Shown piece after piece: positions 7,620 through 38,655 of a stretch of DNA of 64,000 nt (the stretch's first letter is position 1; each line of letters begins with the position of its first letter). The DNA is from Terriglobia bacterium (GTDB lineage: Bacteria; Acidobacteriota; Terriglobia; Versatilivoradales; Versatilivoraceae), in NCBI GenBank assembly GCA_965215235.1, contig OZ244053.1, positions 2,471,192-2,535,191 of the forward strand, in the 5' to 3' direction. The notes under the pieces were generated by a model. The model was not told where the DNA came from. It did no database searches and saw nothing but the letters and a program-made list of their open reading frames with translations. Both the position numbers and the translations under genes were made by a program.

Positions 7620-9605
7620 ATGAACTGGATATCTCCTGAAGCCAAAAAATCAAGCGTCGGGGTTGATAGTGCTTCCCGGAGTAGCCTCGTCATCCTGGTC
7701 TCGACACTGCTTGCCTTCCTGTTGCCTGCTCATTTCATAGCCCAGGAAACTTCGTCTGCGATGCCAACGGAACCGGAAGTCGACTGGATCTTTCCCCTGG
7801 GAGGTCAGCCGGGCGGTCACTGGCAAGCGGAAGTTGAGGGCCGGTTGCTGGACGAAGTCCATGGGGTCTGGTTCCCCAACCAGGGCCTGAAGGGTAAGAT
7901 ACTGGAAGTTCGAGAGCTGCTGACCGAAGAGAAGAAGACTGAACCGGATGAGTCCGGGGCCGAGGAAAAGCCGCGGACTCAGCGAGTCTCACTCCATCTG
8001 GAAATCGATCCGACGGTCCGGTCAGGGATCCATTCGCTGCGACTGGTGTCGAAACGGGGGGTTTCTAATTCCTTGACCTTTCTGGTCAGTTCGGAACCCG
8101 TCATCAAAGAGTCCAAGAGCGCCCATCAGAAGCCCTCCGAGGCGCAGGCGGTCAAGCACCCGGTCATCATCAACGGCAGGATTGCCCAAACGGGCGAGGT
8201 GGATTACTACGCTGTCGCGGTTTCTGCCCGGGAAGAACTTTCTTTCGAACTCTTCACTCCAGCCGAGACCTTTCGACCCACCATCAGGCTGTACGAGGAA
8301 AGGGGAAGCTGGTTGAGGGGGGATGAGCCCAGCCAACTGGAGTTCAGTTATCGGGATGACTATCGATCGTCTCGGGGGAAGCGGTGGCGTCATCGCTTCA
8401 GCCGGGCCGGGCGTTATCTGATTGCCCTGGGGTCCGTCTACGGTAAGGCTGAGCCTGGCTTTATCTACCAGCTTCGAATCGTGTCTGCTGAACGATCGTC
8501 GGCAAAAGGGGAATGGCCCGGTTCCGAGGGACAGGCCCAATGGAGCGAACGGCAGTATGTTCGAAAACTGACGCCGCTCAGGTTGCAGCAGCTCTGGTCG
8601 CGCACCGTCAAAGCCCCCCGGAATCTTCCTCGGGCCAAGGTCACCCAAAGGTCGGCAAATCAGCCTGAGGAGAACGCTGCCAAGCAAGACGTTTCCAATC
8701 CTGGTTCTGATAACGGCAATTCGTCGCCAACGGTCTCCGCAGAAAAAGAACCCAATGGAGAACGCACGCAAGCCCTGACGGTATCGCTGCCCGCTCTCGT
8801 CCGGGGCAGGATCGAAGCTCCCGGGGACGTCGATCTCTTTCAGTTCCAACTGCCGGCGAGACAGTCTCTGGTTTTTGAAGTGGAGACTCCCTATGTGTCG
8901 CCGCCCAGCTTCAGTCCCAGCGTCAAGGTCCTGGACTCTGAGGGTCACGAGCTGTTCAACAACAAGCACAGGAAGATTGCCCTGACCCGGCAAGATCCCA
9001 TCTTTCTGGTGGAGCTTCTCAAGCTTCATCTTCCTGACAGGGGAAGCTGCGGCGTGGGATCCGTTTCCTTTTTTGAGTCGTTGGAAGCTAAAATGGTGGC
9101 CGACTTCGCGGTTGCCGGACAGTACTACCTGCAGATCGGTGACGTCACCTCTCAAAAAGGCCACCCGGACTATGCCTATCGGGTCATGGTTCGACCGCGG
9201 ATTCCTCATGTGGGAGAGCTGGAGCTTGAGGGGGACCGCATCAACCTCCGGCAAGGGGAGGTCAAGAAGCTGAAGATCACCACGGGCTTGGAAGAAGGCT
9301 ATGCCGGCGACGTTGCCCTGAGTCTTGAGGGCCTCCCGCCAGGAGTGGTCCCTTTGACCGGTATGGAAGTGGAGCCCGGAAGCCCGATCGGTCCCACCAC
9401 TGACGGACAGGAAAAATTTCTGGCCTTCACCGAAAAAGCCATCATCTTGTTGCGCGCCGAGGAGAATGCGCCGCTGACTGAAACACCGGTGCTGATCCGG
9501 GTATGGGCGCGGCCTGCCATGAAAAATGAGTTGGGGGCCAAGCTGCTGGTCGGCGAGATTCCGCTCATGGTCATCATCTCCCGGGATCAACCCCAAGAAT
9601 CCTGA
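7620..9605 (+). CDS. Secreted hypothetical protein with two pre-peptidase C-terminal (PPC)-like domains
   Basis: N-terminal TM/signal sequence. Segments 'INGRIAQTGEVDYYAVAVSAREELSFEL' and 'LVRGRIEAPGDVDLFQFQLPARQSLVFEV' match the PPC-domain pattern. Confidence 0.5.
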   Translation: MNWISPEAKKSSVGVDSASRSSLVILVSTLLAFLLPAHFIAQETSSAMPTEPEVDWIFPLGGQPGGHWQAEVEGRLLDEVHGVWFPNQGLKGKILEVRELLTEEKKTEPDESGAEEKPRTQRVSLHLEIDPTVRSGIHSLRLVSKRGVSNSLTFLVSSEPVIKESKSAHQKPSEAQAVKHPVIINGRIAQTGEVDYYAVAVSAREELSFELFTPAETFRPTIRLYEERGSWLRGDEPSQLEFSYRDDYRSSRGKRWRHRFSRAGRYLIALGSVYGKAEPGFIYQLRIVSAERSSAKGEWPGSEGQAQWSERQYVRKLTPLRLQQLWSRTVKAPRNLPRAKVTQRSANQPEENAAKQDVSNPGSDNGNSSPTVSAEKEPNGERTQALTVSLPALVRGRIEAPGDVDLFQFQLPARQSLVFEVETPYVSPPSFSPSVKVLDSEGHELFNNKHRKIALTRQDPIFLVELLKLHLPDRGSCGVGSVSFFESLEAKMVADFAVAGQYYLQIGDVTSQKGHPDYAYRVMVRPRIPHVGELELEGDRINLRQGEVKKLKITTGLEEGYAGDVALSLEGLPPGVVPLTGMEVEPGSPIGPTTDGQEKFLAFTEKAIILLRAEENAPLTETPVLIRVWARPAMKNELGAKLLVGEIPLMVIISRDQPQES

Positions 9606-9664
9606 GAGGTCTTTCTTCCTGGGGTGGAGTCGTCATCTCGCAGCCCAATAGATGTTCAATCGGA

Positions 9665-11921
9665 GTGGTTGCAATGAAGAGTGTTCGATGGATGCCGGTT
9701 CTGGGAATCCTGTTGATTTCGGTTCCCGGCTTCGCCACCTCGGGAATCGCTGTCGAAGGCGCGGATCAAGCCGAACCTTTTGATTTCTCCCGGGACGTCG
9801 TCGGGGTCTTGACGCGCAACGGGTGCAACGGTAGTGAATGCCATGGCGGGGTCAAGGGACGCGGGGGCTTCAAGCTGTCGTTGCATGGAATCAATCCCAG
9901 GGAGGACTACCGCTGGACCGTCAAGGGCGGGATTTACCAGGTGCTATCCCCTGAGGCCGCGGAACCGTTTCGTCCTCGAGTGAACCTCGAAGAGCCGGAG
10001 CAAAGTCGCTTGCTCCTGAAACCCACCCTGAGGTTGCCCCATGGGGGCGGGCAGCGCTTCGAGCCGGGCTCAGCCGATTACCGGATTCTGCTGGATTGGA
10101 TTCGCCAAGGGGCTCCTTACGAAGCGGACGGCCAGGCGCCGTCTCGAATCGAGCGGCTGGAGGTTTTCCCCGGAAAGGTGATCGTGGAACCGGAGGCTCA
10201 GCGGAAGCTCCGGGTGACCGCTTACTTGTCGGATGGCCGAACGGAGGACGTCAGCCCCGAGGTGCTTTATGAAACCAGCGATCCCCAGGTGGTTTCCGTT
10301 GGCTCCACCGGCTTGGTCCGCGCGCTGAAACCGGGGCAGGCAATCGTCACCGTGCGAGCCGCTGGAAAGCTGGTTCATGTCCGATGCGGAGTCATTCGGG
10401 GCCCGGTCTCGGATTATCCGGAGGTCGTCAAGCACAATTTCATTGATGACCATGTCTTTGGGCGACTGCGGAAGCTGCATATTCTTCCGGCGGCTCTGGC
10501 AAGCGACTCGGCCTTCTTGCGGCGAGTCTGTCTCGATCTGACGGGGACCTTGCCGCCGCCTGATCGGGTGCGGGAATTCCTCGCTGACCGGAACCCTCGG
10601 AAACGAAAACATCTGATTGAACAATTGCTGAACTCGCCCCGATATGCCGACTATTGGACCTTCCGCTTCGCCGACTTTTTTCGAGTGGTCTATCGGAACG
10701 CTTATACCTACAAAGGTTGGATTCGACAAAGCCTGGCTCGGAACAAACCCTATGATCAAATGGCCCGGGAGCGCGTGGCGGCCCAGGGCAACGGGGGGGC
10801 CACGCGACATTTTATCAAGTCGGTCAGCGGGGAGGTCATGCTGCCGCACGAGAAAATGGGTGAGGACGTTCGAGTCTTCCTGGGTATACGGTTGGACTGC
10901 GCTCAGTGTCATGACCACCCCTACGAAACCTGGACCCAGGATCAGTTCTGGGGGATTACGGCCTTCTACGGCCAGTTGACTCGAATCAGGAACCTCTCCG
11001 TCTTCATGGACGATTCCGCCGGCAATGGTGAGCGGCCGGAAGGGTCTCGGGTGATTCATCCCCGTCGCAGGCAGGAGGTGGCTCCCAGGTTTCTGGACGG
11101 CTCGGTTCCGCCGACGATTGGTAATAACCCGCGGGAGCGATTGGCGGACTGGATGACGGCGCCGGGCAATCCTTACTTTGCCCAAGCCATCGTCAACCGG
11201 GTATGGGCTTACTTTTTCGGAAAGGGTTTCGTAGAGCCGGTGGACGATTTCAGGCCCGGTAACCCCCCGACCCATCCCGAGTTGCTGCAGGGCCCTGGCG
11301 GAGGATTTCCGGCGGAGCGGCTATGACCTCAAGCATCTGATGAGAGTCGTTGCTCAATCCAGAACCTATCAGTTATCCGGAGATCTCAATGAGACCAACC
11401 AGGAGGATGAGATCAACTACTCCAGGGCTCTGCCGCGCAGGTTGGATGCTGAGATCCTGCTGGATGCCATCTCTGACGTGACCGGCGTCCAGGAGACGTT
11501 CCCGGTCCACGACTACGTGGGCGGGGGGACGGAGCCCCTGGGAACCCGAGCCATTGACCTGGTTCCTGAAGTGACGCCTTCCCAATTTCTGGAAGTTTAC
11601 GGGAGACCTATCAGCCGAGACAGTATGCCGTGGCGTGACCGCCGATCCACCCTCAGGCAGGCGCTGCACCTGCTGGTTGGCTCCACTTACACCACCAAGA
11701 TTTCGGCGGAAGGCGGCAGGGTCGATCGCCTCTTGGCCCGCGGCGCCTCCGACCGGGAGATCGTTGAAGAACTTTATCTGGCGGCTTTTTCCCGGTATCC
11801 GACCGCTGAAGATAAAGCGGGGCTCGAAGCCTTGATGGAAAAATCCTCTTCGCGCAAGAAAGGCATCGAGAACCTGGCCTGGGGGTTGCTCGCCTCTCGG
11901 CAGTTTACCTATAATCACTAG
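9665..11921 (+). CDS. PSCyt2/DUF1549-DUF1553 (PSD) family protein, split by an apparent +1 G insertion at about 11287
   Basis: Signal peptide, then '[11 protein letters not shown]' and '[11 protein letters not shown]' (DUF1549). Downstream '[19 protein letters not shown]' (DUF1553) lies in the next frame. Removing one G from 'CAGGGCC' restores '...[24 protein letters not shown]...'. Confidence 0.8.
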
Positions 11922-13842: not shown

Positions 13843-14000
13843 TGAGCGGTCGGCCTCAGTCGATGTTCCCTTCACGAATTCACACTCGCCCTCTCCCATC
13901 GAGAGAGGGAAGGATTGCCAAGCGGCGAACCAGTTTTTAACTCCCGTCCAATTACGTCTGTCCAATGACGGTGTAGCATGAACCGAGGCCGACCGCTTAG
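13843..14000. repeat. TIR element family A, copy 2; its terminal CGCTTAG supplies the vapC stop codon
   Basis: Termini 'TGAGCGGTCGGCCTCAGTCGATGTTCC' / 'CATGAACCGAGGCCGACCGCTTAG' are inverted repeats matching copy 1. The interior is unrelated to copy 1. Confidence 0.6.
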
Positions 14001-25554: not shown

Positions 25555-27600
<2,046 letters not shown>

Positions 27601-27676
27601 AGAACAAGACGACAGCTTGAAACTTCAACTGGCTAGACTTATAATCTAGCCAAATTCATCCTGGGTGGAGGCGAGT

Positions 27677-27931
27677 ATGACCGATTGGCCGTTGCAAGAT
27701 GCCAAGAACCGTTTCAGCGCCGTTGTGGATGCCGCTCTCGCCGGGAGCCCGCAGCGGGTGACTCGACGGGGCAAACCCGCCGTGGTCATTCTGGCGGTGG
27801 ATGAGTACGAGCGTCTGCGCAATGCAAAGAGGGCGAACGCGCCGACACTTGCGGATTTGCTCCTCTCCATCCCCCAAGACGACAAAGAGTTCGAACGGCT
27901 TCGACTTCCGACCAGACGGGCCGATTTCTGA
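27677..27931 (+). CDS. vapB: Phd/YefM-family antitoxin
   Basis: 'MTDWPLQDAKNRFSAVVDAALAGSPQRVTRRGKPAVVILAVDEYERL' with GGAGG 7 nt upstream. Stop overlaps the vapC start. Confidence 0.75.
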   Translation: MTDWPLQDAKNRFSAVVDAALAGSPQRVTRRGKPAVVILAVDEYERLRNAKRANAPTLADLLLSIPQDDKEFERLRLPTRRADF

Positions 27932-28344
27932 TGTTTCTGATCGATACCGACGTACTATCGGCGCTCCGGAGGCGGAAGCGCAACCCCGATGTCGTCCGAT
28001 GGATGGAAGCTCAACGTACGTCGGACCTGTACATCAGCGTGGTGACCGTTGGCGAGATAGAGCGTGGAGTCGCACGGCAGCAGAGCCGCGACCGGACGTT
28101 CGCGCTGACGCTGGCCGCTTGGCTGGACGGTGTGCTGTCGCTGTACGGTGACCGCGTTCTCGGCGTTGACGTCTCCACGGCGCGCCGCTGGGGCCAACTG
28201 TCCGGCTCGCTTGGACACGAAAGCGCAGACTTGCTGATCGCCGCCACGGCGCTCGAACACGGTTTGACCCTGGTGACCCGGAATGTCGGGCGCTTCGAGC
28301 CGACGGGCGTCCCTGTGCTCAACCCGTTCACTGTTGAAGTATGA
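27931..28344 (+). CDS. vapC: VapC PIN-domain toxin
   Basis: 'MFLIDTDVLSALRR...' PIN domain with conserved D residues, 137 aa. Confidence 0.8.
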   Translation: MFLIDTDVLSALRRRKRNPDVVRWMEAQRTSDLYISVVTVGEIERGVARQQSRDRTFALTLAAWLDGVLSLYGDRVLGVDVSTARRWGQLSGSLGHESADLLIAATALEHGLTLVTRNVGRFEPTGVPVLNPFTVEV

Positions 28345-28382
28345 TTCACGATGCCTCAAATCGGCCGTTGGGAGGACGCACG

Positions 28383-28694
28383 ATGATCCCGGCAGTTGCC
28401 GAGCACGCCGCTGAACTGGAGTCGATCTGCCAACGCTACAGCGTGGCGCGGCTTGACCTGTTCGGCTCGGCGGCCACCGGCAAGTATCGACCGGAGGACA
28501 GCGACCTGGACTTTCTGGTGGAGTTCCAGGAGTTGCCCGCCGGAGGCCACGCAAGCGTCTATTTTGGCTTGCTGAAGTCCCTGGAGCGGCTCTTCTTTGG
28601 GCGGCCCGTGGACCTGGTGGTGGAATCGGCCATCAAGAACCCCTATTTCCGGGAATCGGTTGAAGAAACCAGGGTGATGATTTATGCGGCGTGA
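28383..28694 (+). CDS. MNT-type nucleotidyltransferase antitoxin (HepT/MNT module)
   Basis: 'LDLFGSAATGKYRPEDSDLDFLVEF' minimal nucleotidyltransferase motif (GS...D.D). GGGAGG upstream of ATG 28383. Confidence 0.7.
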   Translation: MIPAVAEHAAELESICQRYSVARLDLFGSAATGKYRPEDSDLDFLVEFQELPAGGHASVYFGLLKSLERLFFGRPVDLVVESAIKNPYFRESVEETRVMIYAA

Positions 28695-28965
28695 AGCCGG
28701 AAAATACCTATGGGACATACAGCGCGCCATCGGTTTGATCCAGGACTTTACCGATGGCAAGACCTTTGCCGACTACCAGTCCGACGTCATGATGCGCTCT
28801 GCTGTAGAACGGCAGTTTGAAATCATCGGTGAGGCCATGACCCAACTGGCAAAACTTGCCCCGGCCCTCGCCTCCCGGATAAGCGAATGTGAGCGGATTA
28901 TCGCTTTCCGCAACGTCCTGATTCACGTCTACGCTGATGTGGATGACATACGGTATGGGATGTAG
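28684..28965 (+). CDS. HepT (DUF86) toxin
   Basis: 'RNVLIHVY' R(x4)HxY motif. Overlaps the MNT gene by 11 nt. Confidence 0.7.
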   Translation: MRREAGKYLWDIQRAIGLIQDFTDGKTFADYQSDVMMRSAVERQFEIIGEAMTQLAKLAPALASRISECERIIAFRNVLIHVYADVDDIRYGM

Positions 28966-29020
28966 TGGAGAACAATCCGCCAACCCTCAGCCGCGAGATT
29001 GACGCCCTTCTGGAGGAAGA

Positions 29021-29266
29021 ATGACCGTCCAAGAACTTACCCGGTTGCTGGCAACCTATCCACCCGGCTTGCGCGTGGTCGTGAGCGGCTATGAAGAGGG
29101 CTACGACGACCTGTCGCCAGAACAGATATCGGTGGTGAAGATTTGCCTGAACACCGGGACCGAGTCCTGGGTGGGACAGCACGAAGAGCCAAACCTTCTG
29201 ACGGGAGGACTGCCCGACGACGCTGAGATCGTCGAGGCACTAAGTTTACGGCGAGTCTCTAATTGA
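29021..29266 (+). CDS. Hypothetical small protein (81 aa)
   Basis: ORF with GGAGGAAGAATG start context. No family recognised. Confidence 0.35.
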   Translation: MTVQELTRLLATYPPGLRVVVSGYEEGYDDLSPEQISVVKICLNTGTESWVGQHEEPNLLTGGLPDDAEIVEALSLRRVSN

Positions 29267-29270
29267 TGAA

Positions 29271-29379
29271 GATGACCCTCCTCACTGCCCAGTGGCGGGA
29301 GCAGCAGACAGAAGCCGTGAGGCTCAGTGCCGCCATTGCGGTCAATCTTAAGAGCCTTACCTTTGGAAAGCTCTGTTGA
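29271..29379 (+). pseudogene. Duplicated, diverged hsdM 3'-end remnant ('[37 protein letters not shown]')
   Basis: Aligns with the real hsdM C-terminus at 27496-27600 ('[34 protein letters not shown]'). The 20-nt 'CCCAGTGGCGGGAGCAGCAG' is identical. Confidence 0.65.
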
Positions 29380-29388
29380 GGACTACGC

Positions 29389-30396
29389 ATGAGCTCGGAA
29401 TTTCAAAAGCGGTTGACCCTCTTAAATGCCGATTACGAGCGTGTCGCTGGTTCTCCCTGTCGCCGTTTCTTTTGTCCAATTCTTTACAGGGACGAGGACA
29501 CTGAACTATGCCGCGCCCACGTGATCAATAGGTCATTCCGGAACTCTGACCGCTCGTGGACCATCCAACGGGCCGATGTCGATGCCTACTACGGCAGCCT
29601 GTTCGAAGCGGAGTTCCTGGCCATGCAGGAAAAAGACCGTCACCAAGCGGATGAAGCTCTGGCTGACAAAGACCTTGTTCGACAGCTAAAGCCGAAGATC
29701 GTCTTGGACGGTGAAGAAGTAGATTACTATTTCCCCCAAGGCCACGTGCCACCGGAGCATTCGGAGGCGACGTTATTCGCCTCAGGAAAAACTGCTCGAT
29801 TGGCACTTAAGCTACCACCAGCCGATATGCTGACCGTTCCAGATGGGAAATTAGAGATTCACATTGATAGGAATCTCCAACTCCCAGCGCTGGCATCACT
29901 TCTCAAGGTCGCGCACCTAACCCTGTTTCATCTGCTTGGATACCGATATGCGCTGTCGGCTAGTGGGCACTTTCTTGGCAAGACCGTGTTAGGTGATTTC
30001 TTTCTAAAGACTCAGAGCATGGGTCGGGCCTCTGTTCTTGTTCAGGCTGAGAGTCACTTTCAAGAATTCACCAACATGGTCCGTCCAATTCTCTCAATGT
30101 CGCCGTATTCTCAGGGCACTTTGACAGATCATTTTCTCTACCTCTGCATGAGAGGAAGTCAACCTTGGGCTCTTCAAGTCCTGATCCGAACCGCTGACCA
30201 CTTGTACGCTGTGATGGTACCCATCATAGACGAGAGCGAAGCGGCCGTTCGGTTTGTCGATTTCCTTAAATCGTCCTCCTCAGAGATTGAGATGAAGCTT
30301 GCTCGATGGAAAGGAGATGCTTGGGAGGTTTCTCCGAAATCGGAGATGCACGTTTGGCCGGAAGCGCTGTTCGATGCTGAATTGCCGACAACCTAA
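29389..30396 (+). CDS. Hypothetical protein (335 aa) embedded between hsdM and hsdS; N-terminal Cys/His cluster 'CRRFFCPILYRDEDTELCRAHVINRS'
   Basis: Strong ORF, lower GC than surroundings, start context 'GAGGACTACGCATG'. No recognised domain beyond a weak HNH-like C...C...C..H spacing. Confidence 0.6.
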   Translation: MSSEFQKRLTLLNADYERVAGSPCRRFFCPILYRDEDTELCRAHVINRSFRNSDRSWTIQRADVDAYYGSLFEAEFLAMQEKDRHQADEALADKDLVRQLKPKIVLDGEEVDYYFPQGHVPPEHSEATLFASGKTARLALKLPPADMLTVPDGKLEIHIDRNLQLPALASLLKVAHLTLFHLLGYRYALSASGHFLGKTVLGDFFLKTQSMGRASVLVQAESHFQEFTNMVRPILSMSPYSQGTLTDHFLYLCMRGSQPWALQVLIRTADHLYAVMVPIIDESEAAVRFVDFLKSSSSEIEMKLARWKGDAWEVSPKSEMHVWPEALFDAELPTT

Positions 30397-30407
30397 GGAG
30401 CTCGGGT

Positions 30408-31709
30408 ATGACGGGTGAGTGGCGCAAGGTGACGCTGGGCAGTGTGATTGACCTTAAACTCAGCAGTGTGGACAAGAAGTCGAAAGAAAGTGAGCGCTCT
30501 GTCCGTCTTTGCAACTACACGGATGTGTACAACAACAACTTTATTCATGGTGCCCTCGACTTCATGGCGGCAACCGCGACTGAGCGAGAGATCGCAAATT
30601 GCACACTGAAGGCTGGAGATGTTGTCATTACGAAAGATTCCGAAAAACATGACGACATCGGTGTTCCTGCACTGGTCCGAGAAGACATATCCAATCTGGT
30701 GTGTGGCTATCACTTGGCAATTCTTCGACCCTCCTCATCAGAAATTGACGGGGCCTATTTGTTTTACGCGCTGAGTGCGAGGGCAATGCAAGAACAGTTC
30801 CATTCATATGCAAACGGTGTTACTCGATTTGGATTGCGGAAGGCTGACATCGGTCTCGTTGAAGTCCCCCTTCCTCCCCTCCCCGAACAGCGTGCCATCG
30901 CCCACATCCTCGGTACGCTGGACGACAAGATCGAACTGAACCGGCGGATGAACGAGACGCTGGAAGAGATGGCGCGGGCGTTGTTCAAGTCCTGGTTCGT
31001 GGACTTCGATCCCGTCCGAGCCAAGATGGAGGGCCGCGACACGGGCCTGCCGCCGGACATCGCCGCCCTCTTCCCCGACCGCCTCGTGGACTCGGAACTG
31101 GGGGACATCCCGGAGGGGTGGGAGGTGAAGGCGCTACCTGAGACGATTGAAATCAACCCAGCACGGTCGCTACAAAAGGGTGAGGTTGCCCCATATCTCG
31201 ACATGGCGAATATGCCAACGAAGGGTCATACCCCCAATGCAGTGACTGCACGGCCCTTTGGCTCGGGTATGCGTTTTATCAACGGAGATACGCTTGTTGC
31301 ACGTATAACGCCGTGTCTTGAGAACGGCAAGACAGCCTACGTCGACTTCCTACAGGATGGCGAGGTCGGATGGGGGTCAACCGAGTATATCGTCATGAGA
31401 CCCAAACCTCCGCTCCCTGATGAGTTCGCATACTGTCTTGCGCGTAGTGTTGATTTCCGCGAGTTTGCAGTTCAGAACATGACCGGGACGAGCGGGCGGC
31501 AACGTGTCCCTGCCACCGCCATGTCAAACTACCAACTACCGCTTCCCGGTGGATTTGAGATCACGGAAGTATTTGGAGAGCTAGTTGAGCCTCTTTTTTC
31601 GCTTGCTTCTCAGAAAGCAGAGGAATCCCGTACCCTCGCCGCGTTGCGGGATACACTGCTGCCGAAGCTGGTGTCGGGGGAGTTATGGGTCGGGGATGTG
31701 AATAGTTAA
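30408..31709 (+). CDS. hsdS: Type I restriction-modification specificity subunit HsdS (two target recognition domains)
   Basis: Conserved central and C-terminal coiled-coil 'LPPLPEQRAIAHILGTLDDKIELNRRMNETLEEMARALFKSWFVDFDP' and '...LRDTLLPKLVSGEL'. Two variable TRDs. Confidence 0.85.
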   Translation: MTGEWRKVTLGSVIDLKLSSVDKKSKESERSVRLCNYTDVYNNNFIHGALDFMAATATEREIANCTLKAGDVVITKDSEKHDDIGVPALVREDISNLVCGYHLAILRPSSSEIDGAYLFYALSARAMQEQFHSYANGVTRFGLRKADIGLVEVPLPPLPEQRAIAHILGTLDDKIELNRRMNETLEEMARALFKSWFVDFDPVRAKMEGRDTGLPPDIAALFPDRLVDSELGDIPEGWEVKALPETIEINPARSLQKGEVAPYLDMANMPTKGHTPNAVTARPFGSGMRFINGDTLVARITPCLENGKTAYVDFLQDGEVGWGSTEYIVMRPKPPLPDEFAYCLARSVDFREFAVQNMTGTSGRQRVPATAMSNYQLPLPGGFEITEVFGELVEPLFSLASQKAEESRTLAALRDTLLPKLVSGELWVGDVNS

Positions 31710-31712
31710 CCA

Positions 31713-33002
31713 ATGGTCAGAACCTCTATGTATGAAGCTAATCGGCCCGTTCCCCTCGGAGAAATGGAGATCGAGTTCGTCATCGATGGACGATCCGTCC
31801 GAGCTCGGGCGAGAGCCGTCGAATACCTGCTCCCCCATCCGATCCTTGCCTTGGAGGTAAGCGATGTTCCTCGGGAACCTTGGTCTGTTGAGCCTGCGGC
31901 TGAACGGCCCAACGTCAAGATATTAAGCGCTCCCGTGATGTCTGAAGGACCTTCAGGTATCACCTTGGAGAATGGCATACAATTGGATGTACTTCCTTTT
32001 TCGTGGGCAGCTACTCAGCGGGATGCCACCCTCTACCTCGCGCAATCACCTTCTGTTGTCTTACAGACGGGCAGTCGCCTCGAGTCTTTACAATTCAATA
32101 TCCTCAACTTTTCGAGGGATTTGCCTTTCGGAACAGTTGCCTTAAACGCTGATCCATGGGCGATAACCATCTACTCGGTTCCAAGTCTTAACAAACTCAA
32201 GGAAACACTCAGAGCTGATGGAGGATACGCTGTCACTCATAACGGGGTAATCAAACTTCGGGGTGACGACACATTCTCTGTCGAAGAAGTTATGGATCTA
32301 CTCTATGGGTTGGATGATTTCCTTTCATTTGTGTGTGGATCCTACTGTTCGCTAACCAATGTGGTTGGCATTGAAAGTGAGGATAATGAAGCCTGGAAAC
32401 GATGGGGATCACATCATGTATCGTCGTGGGGTCACCACCGGTCTTGGTTTGACATTACTGTCGGTGGTGCGCTTTTGGAAATCTTTCCGGTCTTCTGGCA
32501 GGAGTACAAGAAAAACACGAAAACTCTGAGTAGGGTTTTGAAATTGTACGCACATAGCAACGAGACCTTTTCCATAGATGTGAGTTGTATTCTCAGCCAG
32601 ACTGCCCTTGAAATGCTTTCCTACCTAACGGTCGGTAGCCAGACAAACCAAGAAAAACCTGGTCAGTGGATAGAGAGAGCTCTCAATCAGGCTGGAATTC
32701 CCTTCGTAATTTCTCCCCAATGCAAGGATTTGGAGGGGTTCCGCCAGCAAAATCGGCTGACGCATGGGCCACACGCATTAGTTGAGATTCGGAACTCAAT
32801 CATTCACCGCAATGCAGGGCATGGCGATATTCCCTTCGATGTGTATCGCGAAGGGTCCCAACTGGGACTGTGGTACATAGAACTAATGCTATTGCAAAGA
32901 TTTGGTTATACGGGTAAATACGCAAATCGTCTGGAACCGGTGGGATTTGCTGGCCGTACCGAGCCTGTTCCATGGGTATCAGGCCAAGGAGTCAACCCAT
33001 GA
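31713..33002 (+). CDS. Hypothetical protein (429 aa) embedded between hsdS and hsdR
   Basis: Strong ORF starting 4 nt after the hsdS stop, low GC. No Walker A, so not PrrC-like. Its stop overlaps an hsdR-start remnant (ATGA). Confidence 0.6.
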   Translation: MVRTSMYEANRPVPLGEMEIEFVIDGRSVRARARAVEYLLPHPILALEVSDVPREPWSVEPAAERPNVKILSAPVMSEGPSGITLENGIQLDVLPFSWAATQRDATLYLAQSPSVVLQTGSRLESLQFNILNFSRDLPFGTVALNADPWAITIYSVPSLNKLKETLRADGGYAVTHNGVIKLRGDDTFSVEEVMDLLYGLDDFLSFVCGSYCSLTNVVGIESEDNEAWKRWGSHHVSSWGHHRSWFDITVGGALLEIFPVFWQEYKKNTKTLSRVLKLYAHSNETFSIDVSCILSQTALEMLSYLTVGSQTNQEKPGQWIERALNQAGIPFVISPQCKDLEGFRQQNRLTHGPHALVEIRNSIIHRNAGHGDIPFDVYREGSQLGLWYIELMLLQRFGYTGKYANRLEPVGFAGRTEPVPWVSGQGVNP

Positions 33003-33049
33003 CCACCATCACCAAGGCCGACGCCAAGCAGGCCGCCCCTGGACCCTGA
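32999..33049 (+). pseudogene. hsdR 5'-end remnant 1 ('MTTITKADAKQAAPGP*')
   Basis: 'ATGACCACCATCACCAAGGCCGACGCCAAGCAGGCC' parallels the real hsdR start 'ATGACCACCCTCACCGAAGCCGACGTCGAGCAAGCGGCC' at 35527. Confidence 0.55.
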
Positions 33050-33060
33050 GAGTGTGAGCG

Positions 33061-33612
33061 TTGAGCAGCCGCTACGACCCGGAATGCCATCACCGGCGCT
33101 CCATCCGGCTGAAGGGGTACGACTACACACAGCCGGGTACCTATTTCGTCACTCTATGCACACGCGACCGCAAGTTTCTGTTCGGTGATATCGTGAACGG
33201 CGCAATGTGTTTGAACGATGCAGGGAGACTGATCGCCGATGCGTGGAAATGGCTGTCGATTCAGTACCCTTACGTGATGTTGGACGAATACGTCGTCATG
33301 CCTAATCATCTGCACGGCATCATTGTGATCGCCGACCATCGTAGGGGCGGTTCGCGAACCGCCCCTACCCCTATCCGTCGTAAGCCCTTGGGAGGTCTCA
33401 TAGGCGCATTCAAAACCACCGCAGCCAAGCACGTCAACCGTATCCGTAATACGCCCAATCAACCCATTTGGCAGCGCAACTATTACGAGCGCGTCATTCG
33501 AAATGAGAACGAACTGGACCGGGTTCGGGAGTACATAATCAGCAATCCAGCGCGGTGGGCTTTCGATTCCGAGAACCCGCTGGCCGCAATGCCCAAGGAA
33601 AAGGACGCATGA
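33061..33612 (+). mobile_element. REP-associated tyrosine transposase (RAYT; IS200/IS605 Y1 transposase-like)
   Basis: 'GTYFVTLCTRDR', 'MPNHLHGIIVI' (HuH motif) and 'QRNYYERVIRNE' (catalytic Tyr region). 183 aa, typical RAYT size. Confidence 0.8.
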
Positions 33613-33677
33613 CCACCCTCACCGAAGCCGATGCGCTCATCGCGCTGGAGAAGCGCCGGATAGATGCGACCGAATGA
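33609..33677 (+). pseudogene. hsdR 5'-end remnant 2 ('[22 protein letters not shown]')
   Basis: First 24 nt match the real hsdR start. ATGA overlap with the RAYT stop. Confidence 0.55.
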
Positions 33678-33822
33678 GATTACCCGGACTTCGGCGGACC
33701 GGTCACAGTTCCGTTGGTCTCGATCGACGGGCTCGAATCATTCCTTCTTGATCTGCGCCGGGCGCGGACCGACCTCGACAAGGGCACCTGCCCAAACCGC
33801 GGCCGGCAGGTCGTAGTCCCTC

Positions 33823-34047
33823 GTGCGGCTGGATTTTGGTGGCACGCCACATCGCAACCCGGACGGGGAGCAAGCCGGGTCACCGCGCCTCCATCTTTAC
33901 CGCGAGGAATTTGGCGATAAGTGGGCGTTTACCGTCCCGAGCGACCGATTCACGAACTTGGACGATCCATGGCAAACGCTTGAAGACTTCATGCGGTTCT
34001 GCAACATCGTCGAACTGCCCGTCATCCGGAAGGGGCTGTTCACATGA
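33823..34047 (+). CDS. Hypothetical small protein (74 aa)
   Basis: ORF whose stop overlaps the next gene's start (ATGA). Confidence 0.25.
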
Positions 34048-34808
34048 TCGGAGAAATTCAATCGCTGCTGGATCAGTATTGGATCTGGTTGCGGGACAGG
34101 ACCAGCCTTCGCCAGATCGATGACTGGACAGAAATTACTACACCGTACCTGGACCGACACAACGACTGCCTCCAGATCTACGCTAAACGCGACAACGGAG
34201 GGTTCGTGCTGACGGACGACGGTTACGTTCTCGAAGATCTGGAGCAGTCCGGCTGCAAGATCGACAGCGCCAAGCGCCAAGCATTGTTCAGGACGACGCT
34301 CAACGGTTTCGGCGTGAAGGTCAACGAGAAGGCGCTCGAAGTGCGGGCGTCGCCGGACAATTTCGCGCTGCGAAAGCACAATCTTGTGCAGGCGATGCTC
34401 GCCGTCAACGATCTCTTCTACTTGGCATCGTCCACAATCGCCAGCTTGTTCCATGAAGACGTGGTGGCTTGGCTCGATCTCTCCGACATCCGGTATACGC
34501 CCAGCGTGAAGTTCACGGGCAAGAGCGGCTATGATCATCGATTCGATTTCGTCATACCGAAGTCGAGAGTCCAGCCGGAGCGTGTACTGCGCGCCATCAA
34601 CCGCCCGAGCCGTGACACCGCGCAGGCGATGGCGTTCTCCTGGGTCGACATCAGGGAGGTGCGTTCTCTGGAATCCCGCGCCTATGCGATCCTGAACGAC
34701 TCGGACCAACCAATCTCGGCGAGCGTGCTGGACGCGATGCGCAGCTACGACGTGCATCCGGTCCCATGGTCGGGCCGAGATGAAGCGCGCGAGGAACTCG
34801 CCGCGTGA
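34044..34808 (+). CDS. DUF1828/DUF1829-like hypothetical protein
   Basis: '[39 protein letters not shown]' resembles the DUF1828 N-terminal signature. The C-terminal half is DUF1829-like. This is a family call from memory. Confidence 0.45.
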
Positions 34809-35502
34809 TTCCTTCCCGGGTGATGGAATCCGAAGTTGAAGACGCCGCCCCGCCTAGCTGGAGAGCTTGGGCTGGTGCGTCTGCACAGACAGCCCGGTTG
34901 TTCAATCTGTCTGCCCTGGCCTCGCCTTTCCAACTCAGCCGCCTTACCATCGGGGACTACATTGGATTGCTGGAGCGCCTGTTTCTTATCGACCGGCTCC
35001 CGCCGTGGCGCGGCAACCGGCTGAGTCGTCTGGTCAAAACCCCAAAGCTCCACGTCGGCGACACCGGACTCGGGTGTGCTCTGATTGGGTGTAACCCCGG
35101 CGCTCTGGCCCAGGATCGCCACTCTTGGGGCAGTTTCTGGAAACTTTCGTGTTTCAGGAATTGAAGCGGCAGGCCATCTGCCAGGAGCAACCCCTATCGT
35201 TTTATCACTACCGCGACAAGGATCAGGTGGAAGTTGACATTGTCATCGAGCGGGGAGCAACATCTGTAGCCGGCGTTGAGGTGAAAGCCTCCGCCACGGT
35301 AACCACGTCCGATTTTCGGGGCCTCCATAAATTGAAGAGAGTCACCAGCGAGAGGTTCGCTTCCGGGGTGATACTCTACGACGGCGAGATAGCCTCCAGC
35401 TTCGGCGGCCAGATGTTCGCCGTGCCGATTCGATCCCTGTGTGAAGGCCGGAGCGTTAGGCCAGGCTCATTCCTCCCGGGAGGGGACCGGTTGGCGCCGT
35501 AG
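34805..35502 (+). pseudogene. DUF4143/AAA-ATPase family C-terminal fragment (N-terminal ATPase domain missing; internal frameshift at about 35120)
   Basis: 'LTIGDYIGLLERLFLIDRLPPWRGNRLSRLVKTPKLHVGDTGLGCALIG' and 'FLETFVFQELKRQA...YHYRDKDQVEVDIVIERG' are the DUF4143 C-terminal region split across two frames. No Walker A portion is present. Confidence 0.6.
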
Positions 35503-35526
35503 TTCATCGGCTCTCTGAGATTTACT

Positions 35527-38500
35527 ATGACCACCCTCACCGAAGCCGACGTCGAGCAAGCGGCCCTGGACTGGCTGGAGGGCCTCGGCTGGCGGCTGGC
35601 CCGCGGGCCGGATATCGCCCCCGATACTCTTGCCGCGGAGCGCACCGACTACGGGCAAGTGGTGTTGGAGCGGCGGCTGCGGGATGCCCTGGCCGAGTTG
35701 AATCCCGATCTCCCCGCCGGGGCGCTGGACGACGCCTTTCGCAGGTTGACCCGCCCGGAGGGGGCGACGCTGGAAGCCCGCAACCGCGCCTTTCACCGGA
35801 TGCTGGTGGAGGGTGTGACGGTCGAATACCGCACCGATGCCGGCGCAATCCGCGGGGCGCAGGCGCGGGTCATCGACTTCGAAGATTCTAGCAACAACGA
35901 CTGGCTGGCGGTCAACCAGTTCACCGTCAGCGAGAGCAGGAACACCCGCAGGCCCGACGTCGTGCTGTTTGTCAACGGTCTGCCCCTGGGCGTCATCGAG
36001 CTCAAGAACCCGGCGGACGAAGACGCCACCCTCTGGACCGCTTGGCAACAACTACAGACCTACAAGGTCGAGTTGCCTTCGCTGTTCTCCATGAACGAGC
36101 TGCTCATCGTCTCCGACGGGACGCAGGCCCGCATCGGCACGCTCACCGCCGGGCGGGAGTGGTTCAAGCCCTGGCGCACCATATCGGGCGAAGCTCTGGC
36201 CGACCCGCACATGCCCGAACTCCAGGTGATGCTGGAAGGCGTCTGCGCTCACGAGCGGTTCCTGGCTATCGCCCGCGACTTCACCGTGTTCGAGGACGGC
36301 GGCGGCGGGGCGCTGGTCAAGAAGATGACCGGCTATCACCAGTTCCACGCGGTGCGGGTGGCGGTGGCGGAGACTTTGCGGGCATCCGAGTTACAGCGCA
36401 TCGCCGATAAGTCCGGCAGATACGAGTCGGGCCGCAAGCCGGGCGGCGACCCGGGCGACCACCGCATCGGCGTGGTCTGGCACACTCAGGGATCGGGCAA
36501 GAGCCTGACCATGGCCTTCTACGCCGGAGCCATCATCCGCGAGCCGGCCATGGAGAACCCCACCATCGTCGTGCTGACCGACCGCAACGACCTGGACGAT
36601 CAGCTTTTCGGTACCTTCTCCCGCTGCCAGGACCTCTTGCGCCAGCCACCCGTGCAGGCCGAGAGCCGGGCCGACCTGCGCCGCAAGCTCGCCGTCGCAT
36701 CGGGCGGCGTGGTGTTCACCACCATCCAGAAGTTCTTCCCCGAGGAGACAGGAGATATCTACCCTGCACTCTCCAACCGTCGCAACGTCGTGGTCATTGC
36801 CGACGAGGCCCATCGCAGCCAGTACGACTTCATCGACGGGTTCGCGCGCCACATGCGCGACGCGCTGCCGCATGCCTCCTTCGTTGGTTTCACCGGCACG
36901 CCGATCGAATTGCGGGACGCCAACACCCGGGCCGTGTTCGGCGACTACATCAGCATCTACGACGTCCGGCGTTCGGTCGAGGACGGGGCCACGGTGCCCA
37001 TCCACTACGAGAGCCGTCTTGCCAGGCTGGCCCTGGACGAGAGCGAACGACCGACCATCGACACGGAGTTCGAGGAGGCCACCGAGGGCGAGGAGGTGGA
37101 GCGCAAGGAGAAGCTCAAGATCAGATGGGCGCAACTGGAGGCCGTCGTCGGCGCGGAGAAGCGGCTGAAGCGGGTGGCCGAGGATATCGCGGCCCATTTC
37201 GAGAAAAGGCTCGAAGTCCTTGACGGCAAGGCGATGGTGGCGTGCATGAGTCGGCGCATCTGCGTCGAGTTGTACCGGGAGCTCGTCCGATTGCGTCCCG
37301 ACTGGCGCGACGAGGACGACGACAGGGGAAGCATCAAGGTGGTGATGACCGGCGCCGCCTCCGACCCGCCTGAGTGGCAGGCGCACATCCGCAACAAACC
37401 GCGGCGTGAGGCTCTGGCGAAACGTTTCCGAGACCCCGAAGACCCGCTCCGGGTCGTGCTGGTGCGCGACATGTGGCTGACCGGCTTCGATGCGCCCAGC
37501 CTGCACACCATGTACGTGGACAAGCCGATGCGCGGTCACGGGCTGATGCAGGCCATCGCCCGGGTCAACCGGGTGTTTCGGGACAAGCCGGGCGGTCTGG
37601 TGGTGGATTACCTCGGCTTGGCTCCTGAATTGAAACGCGCGCTGGCGACTTACACCGAAAGCGGCGGCGCGGGCCGAACAGCCCTCGATCAGTCGGAGGC
37701 GGTGGCGGTGATGATCGAGAAGTACGAAATCTGCCGCGGCCTGTTCCACGGCTTCGACTGGTCGAAGTGGATCGCCGGCGCGCCGGTGGAGCGGCTGGGC
37801 CTGCTGCCGGCCGCGCAAGAGCACGTCCTGGCGCAGGAGAACGGCAAGGATCGTTGCCTGCACGCAGTGCGCGAACTGTCTCAAGCCTTCGCGCTGGCCG
37901 TCCCGCACGAGGACGCGCTGCGCATCCGCGACGACGTGGCCTTCTTTCAGGCAGTGAGCGGCAGCCTCGCCAAACGCGCTCCCGGTGAGACGCGGCCCGA
38001 AGAAGAGTTGGACCATGCGCTGCGCCAGATTGTCTCGCGCGCGGTGGCCTCCGAAGGCGTCATCGACATTTTCGCCGCCGCCGGGCTGAAGAAGCCCGAC
38101 ATCTCGATCCTCTCCGATGACTTCCTGGCCGAGGTGCGCGGCATTCCCCAGCCCAACCTGGCCGTCGAGCTGCTGCGGAAGCTGCTGAGGGGCGAGCTGG
38201 CTGCGCGCCGAAAGAAGAACGTCGTCCAGGCGAGATCTTTCGCCGAGATGCTGGAGCAAGCCCTCCGCCGCTATCAGAACCGCGCCGTCGAAGCTGCGCA
38301 GGTGATCGAAGAGTTGATCCAACTGGCCCGGGACCTCCGCGAGGCCAACGCCCGCGGCGAAGAGCTCGGGCTGTCGGAAGACGAGCTGGCTTTCTACGAC
38401 GCGCTGGAGACCAACGACAGCGCGGTCCGGGTGCTCGGCGATGAAACGCTCCGCGCCATCGCCCGCCAACTGGTTGAAACCGTCCGCAACAACGTCACCG

Positions 38501-38655
38501 TCGACTGGACGCTGCGCGAGAACGTGCGCGCCCACCTCCGCGTACTGGTCAAGCGCATACTGCGCAAGCACGGCTACCCGCCGGACAAGCAGGAGAAAGC
38601 AACGCTGACCGTTCTGGAGCAAGCCGAGGCCCTGTCCGCCGGCTGGGCTGTCTGA
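35527..38655 (+). CDS. hsdR: Type I restriction enzyme R subunit HsdR
   Basis: '[22 protein letters not shown]' N-terminus. SF2 helicase motifs ([26 protein letters not shown]). 1042 aa. Confidence 0.9.

Follow-up and report, generated by a model that had tools for sequence, protein, structure and literature searches.

A ~13-kb locus within a 64,000-nucleotide (nt) stretch of a Terriglobia bacterium genome (contig OZ244053.1, positions 2,471,192 to 2,535,191; called here the window) is a Type I restriction-modification (R-M) operon in which the frame genes hsdM and hsdR are intact and the interior is an array of foreign cassettes. Among the cassettes lie short fragments, or stubs, of the two frame genes. 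Stubs A, B and C derive from the 5′ end of hsdR, and the fourth derives from the 3′ end of hsdM. We consider it probable that each stub is the scar of a single recombination between operon alleles that was homologous on one side and illegitimate on the other. The window requires at least four events, one for the hsdM stub and one for each of the stubs A, B and C. The order of the locus is hsdM, toxin-antitoxin genes, hsdM stub, orf335-hsdS-YopA-like, stub A, RAYT-like (REP-associated tyrosine transposase; REP, repetitive extragenic palindromic), stub B, PDC-M24, stub C, PDC-S01 fragment and hsdR, with the following features:

25555..27600, + strand: hsdM, intact, 681 amino acids (aa) (Pfam HsdM_N, E = 1.6e-26; N6_Mtase, 7.7e-99; DUF559)
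27665..29266, + strand: cargo block 1, Phd antitoxin, PIN toxin, MNT, HepT and orf81 (Pfam and NCBIfam)
29268..29367, + strand: hsdM 3′ stub, the last ~33 codons of a foreign hsdM, directly 5′ of orf335 (blastn, tblastn)
29389..33002, + strand: cargo block 2, orf335, hsdS (30408-31709) and the YopA-like gene (31713-33002) (Methylase_S; YopA domains in homologues)
32999..33049, + strand: hsdR 5′ stub A, ~46 nt (MTTITKADAKQAAPGP, then a stop), its ATG overlapping the YopA-like stop (pattern search, alignment, blastn)
33061..33612, + strand: cargo block 3, RAYT-like Y1/HUH gene, 183 aa (NCBIfam REP_Tyr_transpos at 64.5 bits, below the cutoff of 80)
33609..33631, + strand: hsdR 5′ stub B, 23 nt, identical to the real start (pattern search)
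33632..34808, + strand: cargo block 4, PDC-M24A (DUF6978) pseudogene and intact PDC-M24B (DUF1828/DUF1829, 34044-34808) (PADLOC, E = 1.7e-105 and 1.4e-4; Pfam)
34823..34878, + strand: hsdR 5′ stub C (MESEVEDAAPPSWRAWAG), fused to mid-PDC-S01 (blastn, matrix scan)
34876..35502, + strand: cargo block 5, PDC-S01 ATPase C-terminal fragment with one frameshift (PADLOC profile positions 230-422 of 422)
35527..38655, + strand: hsdR, intact, 1042 aa (Pfam HSDR_N, SWI2_SNF2, T1R_D3-like, T1RH-like_C)

Stubs and joints in the window

The hsdR start (ATGACCACC.TCACC...) is present at 32999, 33609 and 35527, the three positions at which a sequence-only reading of this DNA had placed copies of the hsdR 5′ end. 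We searched the 64 kb with the 23-nt hsdR start ATGACCACCCTCACCGAAGCCGA, allowing up to three mismatches and using 100 shuffles as the control. The query matched at 32999 with three mismatches and at 33609 and 35527 with none, all on the + strand. No shuffle gave a match, and the chance expectation for the window is none. Upon alignment, the copy at 32999 was 83% identical to hsdR over 40-46 nt, and the copy at 33609 was identical over 23 of 23 nt and unrelated thereafter, so that the three copies are borne out and their similarity exceeds chance. Both upstream copies also overlap the stop of the preceding gene as ATGA, as had been claimed, with the YopA-like gene ending at 33002 and the RAYT-like gene at 33612. 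Of the claim that the copies share frame and orientation only the orientation stood, as the positions modulo 3 are 2, 0 and 1. Three was also too low as a full count, since a degraded fourth copy (stub C) follows PDC-M24B at 34823-34878.

Stub C runs from an ATG at 34823, 15 nt past the PDC-M24B stop, to ~34878. In a blastn self-search it was 72.5% identical to hsdR nt 16-66 (E = 0.001), and it scored 21.8 bits on a matrix of the HsdR N-terminus with which none of 1.3 million control positions reached 20. Its nearest hsdR is that of a related locus, L095 (42/48 nt), and not the resident gene. The stub joins PDC-S01 at ...AWAG/ASAQTARLFN (the slash marks the joint), near residue 243 of ~430 when aligned to full-length homologues. 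The hsdM stub at 29268-29367 is 70% identical to 27492-27591 (blastn E = 5e-12), matches HsdM residues 522-554 by tblastn and lies 1.7 kb downstream of the real hsdM end.

Stub B continues in frame into PDC-M24A, and the two meet at the microhomology GAAGCCGA. Intact PDC-M24A N-termini are found in five loci (MADLNLTQAEADALIAMEK; MAD(L/M)NLTQ(A)EADALIAMEK; nucleotide sequence ...CTCACCCAGGCGGAAGCCGACGCG...), and at the joint in the window nt 1-23 of hsdR are followed by TGCGCTCATCGCGCTGGAGAAG. Comparison of these intact starts with the window sequence places the crossover in the common 8-mer, at the cost of ~9 codons of M24A. The resulting pseudogene (33609-34047) lacks its first ~9 codons and carries a TGG>TGA stop at 33675 and a frameshift. 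PDC-M24B is intact, and PDC-S01 (34876-35502) consists of the frameshifted C-terminal ~190 residues. Because M24A is a pseudogene and S01 a frameshifted fragment, the embedded PDC-M24 and PDC-S01 candidate defence systems are, judged from their sequences, probably non-functional in the window. After stub A, the RAYT-like gene is probably preceded by the final ~7 codons of a foreign hsdS (33045-33065).

The frame and the interior of the operon differ in composition. Both hsdM and hsdR have a G+C content of 66.5% (0.86-0.89 at third codon positions) and the interior blocks have 49-61%, with cargo block 2 at 49-55%, below the frame genes. HsdM, HsdS and HsdR each match the domains expected of a Type I system; the Methylase_S match of HsdS (E = 2.1e-20) spans the first target-recognition domain only, and the conserved C-terminal LAALRDTLLPKL tail is present. 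The embedded defence genes, all on the + strand, comprise PDC-M24B (1.7e-105) and PDC-S01 (1.9e-38) by PADLOC together with Phd/PIN and MNT/HepT. Family searches found no integrase or transposase in the region 25.5-38.7 kb or in the nearest flanking genes, the RAYT-like gene excepted, and inspection of the flanks found no tRNA gene near the locus. The nearest flanking genes with a family match encode PspA and an enolase-superfamily enzyme.

Stubs and cargo in related loci

We compared the window with loci built around YopA-like homologues (L002-L025 and L106-L110) and with a set of 80 loci from metagenomes that belong to the same hsdR clade (L026-L105). The HsdR N-terminus is conserved across the loci as MTT(L/I)TE.DVEQ.AL.WL or M..FTESVVE.AALAWL. 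For a census of 89 loci of this clade, the region upstream of hsdR was searched by tblastn with each locus's own HsdR, taking E <= 1e-3 as a clear stub, and by matrix scan at a threshold of 20 bits. The control space, on the minus strand or downstream, was threefold larger. We found 20 clear stubs in 16 loci and one dubious match in L055, and no tblastn control match was better than E = 0.001. The matrix scan at 20 bits or more gave 21 upstream matches and none in the control. Each of the 20 clear stubs is on the + strand, upstream of hsdR, and ends within HsdR residues 21-108 of 1042; if breakpoints were uniform along hsdR, the probability that 20 of 20 fall inside the first 108 codons would be P = 2e-20. 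Both screens miss shorter stubs, such as A and B of the window and those of L006, L029, L043, L052, L074, L088 and L106. With the short ones included, about a quarter of the loci carry at least one stub. Stub lengths range from 23 to 324 nt with no fixed site. A tblastn search of plasmids with the HsdR N-terminus returned only relatives below 50% identity, at one place per record, and was therefore uninformative for stubs.

Remnants of hsdM, present in the window, L003 (7448-7558) and L052 (1252-1326), consist of the extreme 3′ end only (25-35 codons). These scars sit past the real hsdM, directly before a cargo block. In L003 the hsdM stub is followed by an orf81 homologue, and in the window orf81 is followed by the hsdM stub.

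The proposal that the cargo blocks formerly sat directly upstream of an hsdR is upheld by the related loci, in which each cargo of the window abuts an intact hsdR. The RAYT-like gene does so in six loci (L041, L060, L087, L088, L096 and L104), with the native order hsdS (ending ...KERGL and a stop), RAYT, hsdR in L041, L060, L087 and L088. PDC-M24B abuts hsdR in L033 and L102, PDC-S01 in L045, L048, L056, L061 and L078, and the YopA-like gene in L108 and L109, where the junction is TGAaaATG. In nine other orthologous loci the YopA-like gene never directly adjoins hsdR, and in six of the nine (L002, L003, L004, L006, L018 and L106) a stub comes next. The 3′ ends of these stubs differ (~30, 50, 105 and 129 nt), which indicates that the YopA-hsdR junction was broken independently several times and at no fixed site. 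One orthologous stub is common to L002, L003 and L106, and the position of its stop is not conserved, so that it resembles a decaying scar. The same lack of conservation rules out stub A as a functional small open reading frame. Serial cassette capture, as proposed earlier, is supported by the single scar that accompanies each block and by the presence of such scars in about a quarter of the related loci.

Several joints in other loci fall in hsdS tails. In L069 the joint reads ...RLRDAL/LPKLIRGEIRVKDAERFLKERGL and a stop (LPKLIRGEIRV), with LRDAL as the common motif; in L079 it reads ...GALRD/SLLPKLISGELRL (SLLPKL), to which no common motif was assigned, and in L104 ...GEPDAKR/FIAEVGL and a stop, with AER in common. 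Stub and hsdS tail are joined at AAL in L043, L052 and L088. The HsdR N-terminus (residues 12-14, 37-39 and 51-55) and the last ~30 residues of HsdS (31640-31709 in the window) share AAL, AER and LRDAL in differing order, and across L043, L052, L069, L079, L088 and L104 several of the stub-hsdS-tail joints fall exactly in these motifs. Variable positions together with microhomology indicate illegitimate recombination and argue against both a site-specific system and a homologous crossover at the hsdR start. The latter had been the mechanism offered by the sequence-only reading, in which the hsdR start served as the anchor for import. A crossover there predicts one hybrid gene and no duplicated stub, and an anchor at the start is contradicted by stub 3′ ends of 23-324 nt and by joints in microhomologies of 3-15 nt with unrelated sequence.

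In L069 two successive joints of stub and hsdS tail are present (1197-2420). From the hsdS tail on, its right part appears to match the array of L052 (2558-3620) in peptide motifs, namely a cargo beginning with IA(K/R)AFRY and then the stub MITLAN.ASVTCAHAAL, which runs into an hsdS tail. Judged by these motifs, an already scarred array appears to have been joined as a unit to another allele.

Several genes of the operon have features of their own. The hsdM of the window carries an in-frame DUF559 (Vsr-like endonuclease) insertion of ~125 aa at residues 432-538 that is missing from the orthologous hsdM of L002-L018. The palindrome CCCTCTCCC-NNN-GGG(A/C)GAGGG brackets the insertion at 26793-26813 and 27172-27192, and a third copy lies at 13889-13909. 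The insertion looks like a small mobile element inserting in frame. Homologues of the YopA-like gene contain YopA_M and YopA_C domains and also adjoin MmeI-like restriction enzymes (L107, 6001-9138; L110, 2954-7293), in L107 together with a SIR2 gene. Because of these neighbours, the association of YopA-like genes with defence loci extends beyond Type I operons.

The RAYT-like gene has no Pfam match at E <= 0.01. Members of this Type I clade repeatedly have a Y1/HUH gene of this kind in the hsdS-hsdR interval (L041, L060, L074, L087, L088, L096 and L104). We found no REP family in the window: the sole palindrome, GGGGCGGTTCGCGAACCGCCCC (33344-33365), is internal to the RAYT-like gene and unique in the window. 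It is a perfect 22-nt palindrome, and the same position is occupied by hypervariable inserts in L041, L087, L088 and L104. The inserts in L041, L087 and L104 are tandem peptide repeats, for example GQARPN in L104.

Probable recombination between operon alleles and its alternatives

The mechanism that we favour would be of the homology-facilitated illegitimate recombination (HFIR) type. A legitimate crossover at some point within the conserved hsd genes (the body of hsdR, or hsdM/hsdS) would account for one side of the event. The other side would be closed illegitimately through a microhomology of a few bases, close to where a conserved gene begins or ends. If the joint fell slightly inside hsdR, or in the tail of hsdS or hsdM, the new cassette would be stacked beside the resident one and would not replace it. 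The cassette on the 5′ side would retain its native junction to the hsdR start, and the one on the 3′ side would often lose its 5′ end, as in M24A, S01 and the hsdS tails. Repeated rounds would build a defence island within the operon. That the stub marks the illegitimate end of the event is suggested by the variable 3′ ends and by the microhomology joints at M24A codon 9, in mid-S01 and in hsdS tails. The favoured polarity would be a donor fragment anchored in hsdM/hsdS and ending just within its own hsdR, with the hsdM stubs as the mirror case. A longer hsdR end would undergo a legitimate, scarless crossover, which would keep the observed stubs short, and a shorter end would truncate the incoming cargo. 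This polarity would account for both the 23-324 nt span of the stubs and the 5′-cut blocks on their right.

The recombining partners are in part demonstrably foreign. For stubs of L018 and L080, both stubs of L089 and stub C of the window, an hsdR from a different locus is a closer match than the resident gene; a stub of L089 matches the L040 hsdR at 95/108 nt and its resident at 77/108. The resident hsdR ranks 1-3 of 89 for 15 of 23 stubs. Partners are thus usually closely related, as the need for a homologous anchor would predict. Blocks are intact near hsdS and decayed near hsdR in the window, and the gradient in L104 is the opposite.

Several observations weigh against recombination between alleles. 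The ranking of the resident gene fits duplication within a lineage or gene conversion too. Two loci look like duplications: L104 has the order RAYT, stub-hsdS tail, RAYT, hsdR with RAYT copies that are 81% identical in nucleotide sequence, and in L002 a direct repeat of 313 nt (90% identity; 9465-9776 and 11275-11587) brackets the PDC-M24 cassette. Six of the 20 stubs end at HsdR residues 39-40, in the AER motif, so that a preferred site or common ancestry is possible. Most of the loci compared, moreover, were assembled from metagenomes. Finally, we found no donor and recipient pair recent enough to rebuild a single event, and the polarity and the homologous anchor are therefore inferred.

If the stubs arose by local tandem duplication, sister strands would exchange unequally, with one breakpoint in the 3′ tail of hsdS and the other in the 5′ region of hsdR. 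A second slot for cassettes would result, and allelic exchange would later replace one of the copies. The two RAYT copies of L104, the resident hsdR as the usual nearest relative of a stub and the motifs common to HsdR N-termini and HsdS C-termini are in keeping with this. However, in 17 of 20 loci the stub separates blocks that bear no relation to each other (L104, L002 and a short hsdS-tail match in L079 being the exceptions), all blocks of the window differ, some stubs are clearly foreign, and a second replacement would be needed every time. We regard duplication as quite unlikely; the 17 loci with unrelated flanks rule it out as a general cause, and it fits L104 only. Shuffling through circles, in the manner of Rhs tips, is also unlikely to be the general explanation. 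Here a stub would recombine homologously with the real hsdR start to excise a circle that holds the cassette and one hsdR 5′ fragment, followed by Campbell-type integration through a single crossover at the hsdR 5′ end of another locus. Direct repeats do flank cassettes, as around PDC-M24 in L002, stub B is identical to the real start at 23/23 nt, and a variable length of the core fragment is predicted by such a route (PMC2935791). Most stubs, however, are 20-120 nt long and 70-90% identical to the resident gene and are thus poor RecA substrates, and the joints between stub and cargo at PDC-M24 differ in the window, L002 and L003, so that no cassette junction is inherited. The first stub would still require an illegitimate event, and fusions in mid-gene, as at S01, are left unexplained. 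Circle-mediated integration is possible as a secondary route of shuffling, especially in L002. The repeat in that locus comprises a Phd antitoxin, a PIN stub whose internal deletion is shared by the two copies, and the hsdR start, and it is a plausible substrate for cassette excision.

The common orientation of the cassettes, the sequence that recurs at every boundary and a Y1/HUH-like gene next to hsdR in at least seven loci might point to site-specific, integron-like insertion at the hsdR start with the RAYT-like enzyme as a possible catalyst. This we consider very improbable, as stub 3′ ends range over 23-324 nt, the locus has no integrase, most stub-bearing loci are without a RAYT-like gene in the available sequence and the RAYT palindrome is unique in the window. 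We rejected site-specific recombination on the variable joints; neither a constant site nor a dedicated recombinase was found. It is hardly credible, finally, that the stubs are assembly chimeras of strain variants or fortuitous similarities. Many comparison loci are metagenome contigs and stub B is only 23 nt long, but the chance expectation is 0, and the stubs are no exact k-mer repeats, having diverged and carrying indels and stops. A protein of the window maps to a 5.2-Mb contig, several loci are complete chromosomes of metagenome-assembled genomes, and the orthologous stub of L002, L003 and L106 is present in three independent assemblies.

Recombination between alleles, as favoured above, leads to a broader suggestion that we hold as doubtful. 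Type I R-M operons of this clade may be recombinase-free cassette platforms, in which each cassette carries a short hsdS tail on its left and a short hsdR head on its right. These conserved arms, together with the motifs AAL, AER and LRDAL that they have in common by chance, would allow defence cassettes to be stacked, deleted and swapped between alleles by general and microhomology-mediated recombination. If true, the operon would resemble an integron in function while lacking both integrase and attC sites.

Comparison with known systems

Defence genes nested in restriction, BREX and related operons are used for discovery through ‘guilt-by-embedding’, and their route of arrival is unexplained beyond the idea of a ‘genomic sink’. 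The stubs offer a readable record of it, with one event per scar, the former neighbour of each cassette and illegitimate joints clustered at the edges of conserved genes. The assembly of an embedded defence island becomes testable by counting and dating stubs or by reproduction through transformation, and annotators gain a marker of cassette boundaries. Our search of the literature on hsdR remnants, truncated hsdR and illegitimate recombination in R-M loci found nothing relevant, and a recent R-M review added nothing on the mechanism of embedding. We thus found no prior description of stub scars in Type I R-M loci; the recombination logic itself is already known, and the present findings extend the sequential displacement of polymorphic toxin loci to immune operons.

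PrrC in EcoprrI is the classic gene embedded in a Type I R-M system. Payne et al. 2024 (bioRxiv 10.1101/2024.01.29.577857) catalogued defence genes that lie within loci of the Type I R-M, BREX, DISARM and Hma systems, and PDC-M24 and PDC-S01 originate in that catalogue. Similar to those loci, the window has extra defence genes nested in an operon in the same orientation. The catalogue presents the ‘genomic sink’ idea with no mention of remnants, truncation or recombination, whereas the stubs described here are a physical record of embedding. Integron arrays are alike in being an ordered, co-oriented stack of promoterless cassettes beside a fixed gene in which newcomers displace the old. In contrast to integrons, the operon has no integrase, attC-like site or fixed crossover, and its boundaries are pseudogene fragments of variable length.

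The closest parallels are found in toxin loci. Orphan cdiA-CT/cdiI modules of contact-dependent growth inhibition systems are similar to Rhs displacement arrays. The same displacement logic was published for Rhs C-terminal arrays by Jackson et al. 2009 (PMC2935791). There, as here, displaced cassettes line up beside a conserved gene that is itself intact, each with a fragment of variable length from the edge of that gene, and their counterparts in other strains occupy the active position. The window likewise holds co-oriented edge fragments at its boundaries (three of hsdR and one of hsdM), of variable length, with cargo that is found at the active position elsewhere. The arrangement is mirrored, however, with 5′ stubs upstream in place of 3′-core fragments downstream. 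The cargo consists of whole unrelated operon genes and not of alternative ends of one protein, and the joints fall where a stub shares microhomology with an unrelated gene or with an hsdS tail.

Sequential displacement of effector-immunity genes in type VI secretion system arrays of Vibrio cholerae has been attributed to HFIR by Kirchberger et al. 2017 (PMC5361080). In those arrays a conserved flanking gene is proposed to supply the homology, the opposite end being joined illegitimately. The old cargo is kept and pushed along, and remnants of displaced genes mark the events. Illegitimate joints at microhomology are equally present in our loci, at GAAGCCGA between stub B and M24A and at AAL, AER and LRDAL in hsdS tails. 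What sets the present case apart is that it concerns a restriction operon, that its scars are the edges of hsdR, hsdM and hsdS, and that events apparently came from both sides of the variable region.

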